Below, piece by piece: positions 33,623 to 35,098 of a stretch of 38,439 bases of DNA (position 1 is the first letter of the stretch; each line of letters begins with the position of its first letter). This stretch comes from Promethearchaeota archaeon (GTDB taxonomy: Archaea > Asgardarchaeota > Thorarchaeia > Thorarchaeales > Thorarchaeaceae), in NCBI GenBank assembly GCA_048939765.1, contig JBHLPF010000035.1:1-38439 (forward strand). Reading direction: 5' to 3'. Both the position numbers and the translations under genes were made by a program. The notes beneath the pieces were generated by a model. That model was not told where the DNA came from and searched no databases. It saw nothing but the letters and a program-made list of their open reading frames with translations.

Positions 33623-35098
33623 TTACGCTCCTCCGAGCCACATCGCCCAGTCCACAGTCCAACAGCAAATATTCCAGATAGTAAGGGTTCTGAACATTGA
33701 ATCACTTATGGACTTGCTCACATCGAAAATCTCACCAACGCCGCTCAAAAGATGGTCCACAGCACTGTATATGAATATCACGCAGAGCAGATATACACAT
33801 GTCCTAACCAGGCGCCGTTCGCTATATGTCAGGCTGATACCGAATAATCCAAAGAGAAACAAGAAGATTGGCATTGTCAGATCACCCAACGTATTGCCGA
33901 ATATCCGAGCGATTGCCGCAAAGATTGAGTTGTAGCTCAGACTTGAGAAGAAATATGTCATCAAGGAGTATAGTATTAGACCTGCACCATTTCTGACAGC
34001 GAGGTTCATCAGTGCAATAAGGGGAGTCCCAAATGCAAGAATGAATCCACATACAAGCAGACCTACAGCAATCTTAACCAAGGGCCAGAGGTCGATTGTT
34101 CCCCAGAGTATTCTCACTTTGAACATCTGTGATAGTCCAGTAAGGTCTCCGATTATCCCCACGACACAGCTGACTGCGACAACTGTTGCGGCAAGAACAC
34201 CAAGAATCTTAGCCGCCGACGCACTAAGATTGTCTAGAATAATGAGCAGGAGAACACCTAGTATCATGCCCATGATCTTGAGCGCGACTGCTGAGTCGGT
34301 CCAGTATGTCTTTGGAGCAGGTGTGGCCACCATAATTGTGTTAACTGTCCTTTGAATGGCTCTCCAATTGGCTAGGGGCTCATAAGACTCAGGGCGTGCT
34401 TCGAGGGCGGCTACTCTGTCGATAAACTGACCAGTCATCTCAGCAATCTCGGATTGACTTCCGTCAAATGCAGCAACTATTGATGCACTCAGTGCTATCG
34501 CTGCAATCTGTGCGTCAATCTCTCCTGGAAATCCGATTGCAGCTGGTAGATATTCTTCGATTTCAGAGCTATAGCAGGACAAGAACACTGGAACATCAAC
34601 TCGTCCGGTTTTAATCGAGTGTGCAATATCCTCCCATGTTGCTGAAGATCGAGAGTCGGCTATTCCCTCACTACTCCCATGAGCAACAACTACCAAGAAT
34701 GAAGTTTGATACTCTCTTATAGTTTCAGCTAATTTGTCCAGGGCAACCTCTGATTCTTTGTAGTCAATGTGCGGCACGAGAGTCTGCGTAACAACAGGAG
34801 TTGTACCCTGATTCACAAATTGCGGTTGACTCATTCCTCTCCAATCTGCAGAATTCCATTGAGATTCCACAATCTCATTGTGAGATTTGAGGTTCTCTGC
34901 AAGTGTCACAGAGGCAGATGCTATTTCCTTTGAATCACCCACCCTCAGAATGAGAACATCTTCCTGAATAGGCATCCCCGCAAAGGTGGCAATTCCAATC
35001 GCAACTATGCTCACAGTGCTCATCAATACAATCAGGGTGACCGCTATGGCTACAAAGCGCACCCTTCGGCTAGCTTCTATACTCCTTCTCTTCCCCAT
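33623..35098 (-). CDS. Membrane-anchored protein with caspase/CHAT-like His-Cys domain and multi-helix hydrophobic C-terminal domain
   Basis: N-terminal TM; LVVVAHG, VFLSCYS, AIGFPGEID; about 6 hydrophobic helices; start taken at ATG 35098 after GAGGGA. Confidence 0.7.
   Translation of the reverse strand: MGKRRSIEASRRVRFVAIAVTLIVLMSTVSIVAIGIATFAGMPIQEDVLILRVGDSKEIASASVTLAENLKSHNEIVESQWNSADWRGMSQPQFVNQGTTPVVTQTLVPHIDYKESEVALDKLAETIREYQTSFLVVVAHGSSEGIADSRSSATWEDIAHSIKTGRVDVPVFLSCYSSEIEEYLPAAIGFPGEIDAQIAAIALSASIVAAFDGSQSEIAEMTGQFIDRVAALEARPESYEPLANWRAIQRTVNTIMVATPAPKTYWTDSAVALKIMGMILGVLLLIILDNLSASAAKILGVLAATVVAVSCVVGIIGDLTGLSQMFKVRILWGTIDLWPLVKIAVGLLVCGFILAFGTPLIALMNLAVRNGAGLILYSLMTYFFSSLSYNSIFAAIARIFGNTLGDLTMPIFLFLFGLFGISLTYSERRLVRTCVYLLCVIFIYSAVDHLLSGVGEIFDVSKSISDSMFRTLTIWNICCWTVDWAMWLGGA

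Follow-up and report, generated by a model that had tools for sequence, protein, structure and literature searches.

We analysed a 38,439-nucleotide stretch of DNA (the window; NCBI GenBank assembly GCA_048939765.1, contig JBHLPF010000035.1, positions 1 to 38,439 of the forward strand) from a Promethearchaeota archaeon of the family Thorarchaeaceae. This report concerns one gene in it, located at window positions 33623-35098 on the minus strand, which encodes a protein of 491 amino acids (P0001) followed by a TAA stop codon. An N-terminal membrane anchor precedes a domain whose predicted fold and His/Cys signature resemble those of clan CD (CHAT/caspase-like) cysteine peptidases, and a conserved linker joins this domain to a polytopic membrane half (Table 1). 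In the list of open reading frames (ORFs) the frame is open over 33623..35188 (521 amino acids), and the same 30-codon extension is also open in a congener with a 95% identical protein. The gene calls of the homologues P0003-P0005 begin at the residues MGKRR, which corresponds to a start at 35098; judged from the sequence, the extension (35099-35188) is probably not translated. Downstream of the gene, on the same strand, lies an ORF for a 91-amino-acid protein with two transmembrane (TM) helices.

Table 1. Features of the gene for P0001 and of its downstream neighbour, in window coordinates (all on the minus strand)
Feature	Coordinates	Strand	Basis or remark
Whole gene: TM anchor, CHAT-like domain, conserved linker, polytopic TM domain	33623..35098	-	
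Possible 30-codon 5' extension (MKNSL...)	35099..35188	-	longest ORF begins at 35188
TM1, signal anchor, residues 14-40	34979..35059	-	hydropathy peak 2.68
Predicted extracytoplasmic alpha/beta domain, CHAT/caspase-like, residues 43-240	34379..34972	-	no Pfam model
Variable insertion, residues 84-112, between helix 1 and strand 2	34763..34849	-	10-45% identity among orthologues
His140-Gly141, end of strand 130-141 (LVVVAHG), putative general base	34676..34681	-	codons checked, DSSP, hhalign register
Cys175, two residues past strand 166-173 (VFLSCYS), putative nucleophile	34574..34576	-	TGC, codon checked
Asp195 of the G-x-I-D motif (end of AIGFPGEID), candidate third active-site or S1-pocket residue	34514..34516	-	putative role
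Pro241-Leu242-Ala243, C-terminal edge of domain	34370..34378	-	candidate cis-cleavage or pseudosubstrate site, or structural cap
Conserved linker, residues 241-267 (PLANW...ATPAPKTYW)	34298..34378	-	59-96% identity among orthologues
C-terminal polytopic membrane domain, residues 268-491, six or seven helices	33626..34297	-	no known family
Downstream 91-amino-acid two-TM ORF, candidate partner subunit, substrate or immunity-like protein	33308..33583	-	

The structure of the protein was predicted with AlphaFold 2 (AF2) from an alignment of 41 sequences. Residues 11-240 are modelled with block values of the predicted local distance difference test (pLDDT) of 86-98, with the exception of the variable insertion, where values of 49-71 are found across residues 81-110; a model built from the single sequence reached a pLDDT of only 41. 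Along the chain the model shows strand 44-53, helix 57-83, strand 113-118, helix 120-128 and strand 130-141 ending in His-Gly, followed by a small hairpin, helix 155-163, strand 166-173 with Cys175 behind it, and helices up to residue 234. The model is an alpha/beta/alpha sandwich with a parallel sheet, and its nearest structures are known clan CD members. The best match is a CHAT protease, which stands about 2 Z units above the others and gives the longest alignment, while the similarity to legumain is lower. The dyad of SAVED-CHAT is H375/C422 (bioRxiv 10.1101/2023.06.23.546230), and both residues fall within the structurally aligned chain range 305-486.

The positions of the putative catalytic residues agree with this fold. 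As in clan CD, the His-Gly pair closes a hydrophobic strand and the Cys follows the next hydrophobic strand. On a codon check the His140 codon (CAT, 34679-34681) and the Cys175 codon lie exactly where the first-pass annotation had placed them. In an alignment of 85 sequences, composed of cluster representatives and ORFs cut from Asgard genomes, His140 and Cys175 are each present in 85/85 sequences, Asp195 and Trp155 in 83/85, Gly145 in 82/85 and Gly141 in 79/85. The overall identity of distant relatives to P0001 goes down to about 16-20%, and since the His/Cys pattern is invariant in spite of this, it lies far above chance. The clan CD dyad proposed in the earlier annotation is borne out in this respect, as is a basic N-terminus followed by a TM anchor. 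From the model, a clan-CD-type fold with a canonical His/Cys dyad, nearest to CHAT and forming a separate family undetected by current models, is reasonably supported.

A domain of this kind need not be a peptidase. It may be a flavodoxin-like or binding-protein-like extracytoplasmic sensor, or a cofactor- or metal-binding domain, with His, Cys and Asp as ligand-binding residues and a TM half that transduces a signal or transports something. We regard this as unlikely, although the fold statistics taken by themselves would allow it. The lead and the alignment length of the CHAT protease among the structural matches speak against it, as does the placement of His-Gly and Cys exactly at the ends of adjacent hydrophobic strands. 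In addition, one His, one Cys and one Asp make a poor metal site, and the protein has no cytoplasmic output domain to which a sensor could be coupled.

Concerning topology, six Lys/Arg residues stand N-terminal to TM1, and the TM1 region forms a helix in the AF2 model (residues 7-40, pLDDT about 90). By the positive-inside rule the basic N-terminus before TM1 places the N-terminus inside and the domain outside the cell, and the peptidase-type domain is therefore predicted to be extracytoplasmic. Two features of the relatives support the outside location: paralogues have signal-peptide-like N-termini, and elsewhere the domain is fused with a DUF676/PGAP1-like hydrolase, TSP3 repeats and Ig (immunoglobulin) domains.

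The C-terminal 224 amino acids form six or seven hydrophobic helices. Hydropathy peaks of 1.8-2.7 support residence of the protein in the membrane. They had been described as Gly/Ala-rich; their composition is in fact Leu/Ile/Val-rich (36%, with 8.9% Gly and 8.5% Ala). No curated family in Pfam or NCBIfam, no PDB sequence and no usable entry of the ESM Atlas matches this half, the nearest sub-threshold matches being DUF6069 (E 0.021, Pfam) and ND6 (E 0.06, PDB sequences). The identity of a known permease or transporter was considered and rejected, as no curated model matched, and the earlier remark that the region resembles no known transporter thus stands. By sequence the TM half is unlike any family; no novelty is claimed for its fold. 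It occurs only in fusion, the sole seemingly free-standing match (P0012) being a contig-truncated fragment.

Full-length orthologues are found in metagenome-assembled genomes (MAGs) of Thorarchaeota, with overall identities of 34-95%. Identity to P0001 is 31-77% in the peptidase-type core (113-240) and 54-93% in the TM half (268-491), so that in the target clade the linker and the TM half are better conserved than the core, the insertion being the most variable part. Within the TM half the polar residues D289, N365, N370, D448, N476 and D483 are invariant, as is the tail T-x-W-N-I-x-C-W-x-x-D-W.

Full-length homologues with 42-82% identity all come from Thorarchaeota MAGs, where they are annotated as hypothetical proteins, and further orthologues are present in a member of the same genus (G152, 95% identity) and in a member of the same family (G075, 34% identity). 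An exhaustive phmmer search over 1.84 billion cluster representatives returned 36 relatives, most of which share just residues about 11-240. All relatives with an organism name are Promethearchaeota/Asgard, one of them from the cultured Candidatus Lokiarchaeum ossiferum. A second, word-indexed homologue search with the family alignment found no additional relatives, and in the literature on Asgard CHAT, caspase or orthocaspase proteins nothing relevant was found. The N-terminal domain is present in 70 of 201 sampled Asgard genomes, often in multiple copies; some genomes carry nine or more matches, some of them closely spaced, and at one locus (L063, G054:C4:898000-916000) at least four family members lie within about 8 kb, interleaved with small ORFs of two to four TM helices. 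The source genome (88.5% complete) has a single copy.

In the wider family the domain is fused to differing multi-TM regions. Architectures of another kind also occur. In several Asgard genomes, proteins of about 600 amino acids begin with the His/Cys domain and continue with an alpha/beta-hydrolase domain resembling DUF676/PGAP1/DUF7379, then with bacterial TSP3 repeats and in some cases an Ig domain (L032:652-2508, L035:1713-3590, L038:1753-3600, L040:533-2398, L024:1450-3507), which looks like a putative secreted two-enzyme architecture. Giant ORFs of 1,600-1,870 amino acids combine the domain with many TSP3 repeats (L031:4603-9408, L036:4546-9345, L037:4448-10060). The L037 frame has an N-terminal SAM (S-adenosylmethionine)-methyltransferase domain as well, which may belong to a separate upstream gene.

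At the end of the domain, Leu242 is kept in 79 of the 85 aligned sequences, mostly with Pro before it, and in 47 of those 79 the next residue is Ala, Gly or Ser. Residues 241 and 243 form beta-bridges in the AF2 model. In the target clade this boundary motif leads into the conserved, partly helical linker, in place of which many paralogues have a Gly- or Pro-rich low-complexity linker. The cysteine protease domains (CPDs) of C80 toxins cut after Leu ahead of a small residue, and we take this as a lead only; from its sequence the Pro-Leu-Ala boundary may cap the domain structurally, act as a tethered pseudosubstrate or be cleaved in cis. Any cut at the boundary leaves both halves membrane-anchored and releases neither.

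These observations bear on the proposal of the first-pass annotation that the gene encodes a self-processing, pore-forming antagonism toxin. In the form considered here, a cut at the boundary would free the C-terminal domain into the membrane of a competitor, and the downstream protein would confer immunity. We keep this as a minority reading on several grounds, among them conflict-like traits of the family: a conserved Leu242 followed mostly by Ala, Gly or Ser, which resembles the Leu-specific cis-cleavage of MARTX/TcdB CPDs; a gene for a membrane protein downstream; a patchy, multicopy distribution with closely spaced paralogue clusters in some genomes; one paralogue branch in which identity changes at a Gly-rich linker from 80-90% in the domain to about 21% in the C-terminus; integrase-like ORFs beside two orthologues; and the absence of the gene from the available syntenic sequence of congeners. 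The reading is nevertheless weak, since conservation in the target clade is highest in the TM half and about eight hydrophobic helices cannot readily leave the membrane of the producer. Conservation of linker and C-terminal half is the opposite of what a diversifying payload would show, and six or seven very hydrophobic helices together with an N-terminal anchor would insert into the producer's own membrane, where both halves remain anchored after a cut. There is no delivery apparatus near the gene, and no similarity to a toxin, pore former or defence model in Pfam, PDB sequences, the Atlas or PADLOC. A conserved protease with variable C-termini, as the annotation had anticipated, describes the wider family and not the target clade. 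Even in the diverging branch the C-termini share their architecture and a C-terminal D-x-N-D tail, and by their sequences they are fast-evolving homologues rather than swapped modules; swappable, unrelated C-terminal modules, the hallmark of polymorphic toxins, were not found. On balance we hold a released toxin to be quite unlikely, and the membrane-embedded processing or signalling protease that the annotation had named as its alternative fits better.

The 91-amino-acid two-TM ORF is the one conserved neighbour of the gene. It lies directly downstream of every orthologue examined (L002/L060, L061, L059, L062), these orthologues comprising proteins of 95%, 42% and 34% identity and an internally deleted copy, and the two-TM proteins have a common C-terminal P-x-x-G-(Q/R)-R-I-D motif. 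Family-wide, genes for the domain plus TM segments are usually followed, at a distance of -8 to +130 bp, by another gene for a polytopic membrane protein of 90-380 amino acids with 2-6 TM helices. Neither Pfam nor PADLOC gave a match for the two-TM partner, the ten partner proteins of paralogues showed no Pfam family, and PADLOC and domain-library scans gave no family for either the target or its partner. The flanking ABC (ATP-binding cassette)/FtsX, SatD and methyltransferase genes are not conserved alongside the target.

The distribution among close relatives is uneven. A family member was not found in three of the four congeners searched, G134 (92% complete), G173 and G176, and the gene is absent from their available syntenic sequence, which for G176 is partial because the contigs break here. 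The segment 33250-35438 of the window differs from G134:C51, G173:C3 and G176:C45/C274. In G134 the ABC/FtsX genes are directly followed by the PEMT-like genes, and in G173 the target is missing from the 4 kb that precede the SatD module. Just upstream of the cassette in L062 and L059 there are integrase- or transposase-like ORFs (L059:1-321). At L062:3441-4009 (Thorarchaeota B65_G9) the orthologue is broken, with residues ~120-219 and 435-491 left in different frames. Because of the absence in congeners and the integrase-like ORFs beside two orthologues, the module is accessory; in the reading that we favour it is fast-evolving, and neither core machinery nor a secreted toxin.

This accessory status also affects a further reading, in which the protein is a sorting transpeptidase similar to GPI8/PIGK or PorU that removes a C-terminal TM signal and links surface proteins to a lipid or a wall component that the TM half holds. 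The idea is attractive, as the source genome has about 58 ORFs for predicted type-I surface proteins with a C-terminal TM helix and a basic tail, and no Exosortase_EpsH (PF09721) match was found anywhere in this 88.5%-complete genome. P0001 itself does not match that model either, so that it is not placed among the archaeosortases/exosortases. That no family member was found in three of the four congeners, including one at 92% completeness, is unlike core sorting machinery, candidate substrates have no common sorting motif, the domain is structurally nearer to CHAT than to legumain, and the paralogue arrays have divergent TM parts. We therefore consider a sorting function very improbable. Two proteins encoded in the window itself, at 32671-33249 (+) and 37344-38204 (-), are predicted to be secreted and have an RRR tail behind a TM helix at the C-terminus; the latter also bears a Thr-rich stalk.

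Taking the evidence together, we favour, by a little over even chance, a membrane-resident, outward-facing clan CD (CHAT/caspase-like) cysteine peptidase whose family is undescribed and was seen here in Asgard archaea only. Anatomy, conservation, predicted fold, distribution and gene pairing are observed, whereas topology, catalysis, substrate and biological role are inferred. TM1, with its N-terminus inside, and the six- or seven-helix C-terminal domain would pin the catalytic-type domain to the outer face of the membrane. The active site would consist of His140 and Cys175, which sit where two neighbouring parallel strands end, with Asp195 close by. Most likely the protein works in a fixed membrane complex with the co-encoded 91-amino-acid two-TM protein. 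Its target may be a specific extracytoplasmic or membrane-proximal peptide, which would be cut either in trans, in the partner or in a surface protein, or in cis at the Pro-Leu-Ala boundary motif.

Several findings weigh against this interpretation. Neither Pfam nor NCBIfam has a model for the N-terminal domain, and PF12770 (CHAT) does not match the protein even at E <= 10, nor any of 41 relatives. Comparison with 15 Asgard CHAT domains by hhalign, using the 41- and the 85-sequence profiles in local and global modes, was not significant (P 0.02-0.08, probability <3%), for which reason the domain is not filed in PF12770; in favour of the interpretation, these alignments bring His140 into register with the His of CHAT and Cys175 with its Cys. 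A search of PDB sequences with orthologue and wider-family profiles gave noise only (apart from ND6, phosphoglycerate mutase at E 0.4), and the CHAT clusters that the ESM Atlas returned for the N-terminal domain, at 0.88, are under the reliable range and serve as leads only. The geometry of the His140-Cys175 dyad and the position of Leu242 are inferred rather than measured, and the helices of the TM half are poorly modelled by AF2 (pLDDT 45-80). Among the 58 type-I candidates there is no shared C-terminal motif, and no substrate was identified. Between the paralogues P0029 and P0036 identity is about 80-90% in the domain as far as the conserved Leu and drops to about 21% past the Gly-rich linker, a pattern suggestive of recombination, or of diversifying selection, affecting the TM part in that branch. 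Finally, the patchy distribution, the tandem paralogue arrays and the downstream membrane gene also fit a conflict or toxin-immunity system.

A further reading is an Asgard-specific conflict or recognition system acting at the surface, of which this gene would be the founding example. Autoprocessing of the outward-facing CHAT-like protease at the conserved Pro-Leu-(Ala/Gly) junction would activate or unmask its own polytopic domain as a channel-forming or membrane-perturbing effector, and the partner would be an inhibitor or immunity factor. We rate this as rather improbable. Its logic would broadly parallel, outside the cell, that of bacterial protease-gasdermin pairs and CPD toxins.

Clan CD proteases such as caspases, separase, CHAT, legumain and GPI8 take part in key decisions in the biology of eukaryotes and prokaryotes alike, and no known organisms are more closely related to eukaryotes than the Asgard archaea. 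The family described here is present in about a third of the sampled Asgard genomes and yet undetected by domain databases, and its named members are all annotated as hypothetical. We found no described counterpart of this architecture, in which an outward-facing CHAT-like domain has a membrane tether on either side and a second membrane protein as its partner. If catalytically active, it would represent a new class of archaeal surface proteolysis, in maturation, shedding, signalling or conflict. The member from the cultured Lokiarchaeum ossiferum is a possible route to experiments.

Comparison with known systems reveals partial likeness to several of them. CHAT proteases (PF12770; SAVED-CHAT 8tl0, Craspase Csx29 8d9f) are the nearest in fold, but they have no significant sequence or profile similarity to the target. 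The target domain is smaller, its His-Cys spacing is 35 residues as compared to 47 in CHAT, and it is predicted to face outwards with a membrane tether on either side. Known CHAT proteases, by contrast, reside in the cytoplasm and carry SAVED or TPR sensor fusions. Legumain/asparaginyl endopeptidase-ligases and GPI8 (C13) are structurally less similar than CHAT and have no sequence match to the target, which also differs from C13 in its accessory, not universal distribution and shows no sign of transpeptidation. The CPDs of MARTX and large clostridial toxins (C80) are the analogy drawn in the first-pass annotation. They are His/Cys clan CD domains whose cis-cleavage takes place between Leu and a small residue; the target has a near-invariant Leu242 with mostly Ala, Gly or Ser next to it. 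C80 is not among the fold matches listed for the target, and it acts in the cytosol of the target cell after activation by inositol hexakisphosphate (InsP6) and releases soluble effectors, whereas both halves of the target are integral membrane segments. In peptidase-containing ABC transporters (PCATs; C39 + ABC) that export bacteriocins and in AgrB, a cysteine peptidase is coupled to a polytopic domain and the product of a small adjacent gene is the substrate. This is a functional analogy only: folds and sequences are unrelated, their peptidase is cytoplasmic or intramembrane, the target has no ATPase, unlike PCATs, and partners in the wider family are large polytopic proteins. The Peptidase_C25 model, which did not match the target protein itself, gave weak matches in 4 of the 41 relatives (best E 0.008, all far under the Pfam cut-off), a faint link at sequence level in favour of the clan CD reading; gingipains and PorU, which belong to C25, are extracytoplasmic clan CD peptidases, as is predicted for P0001.

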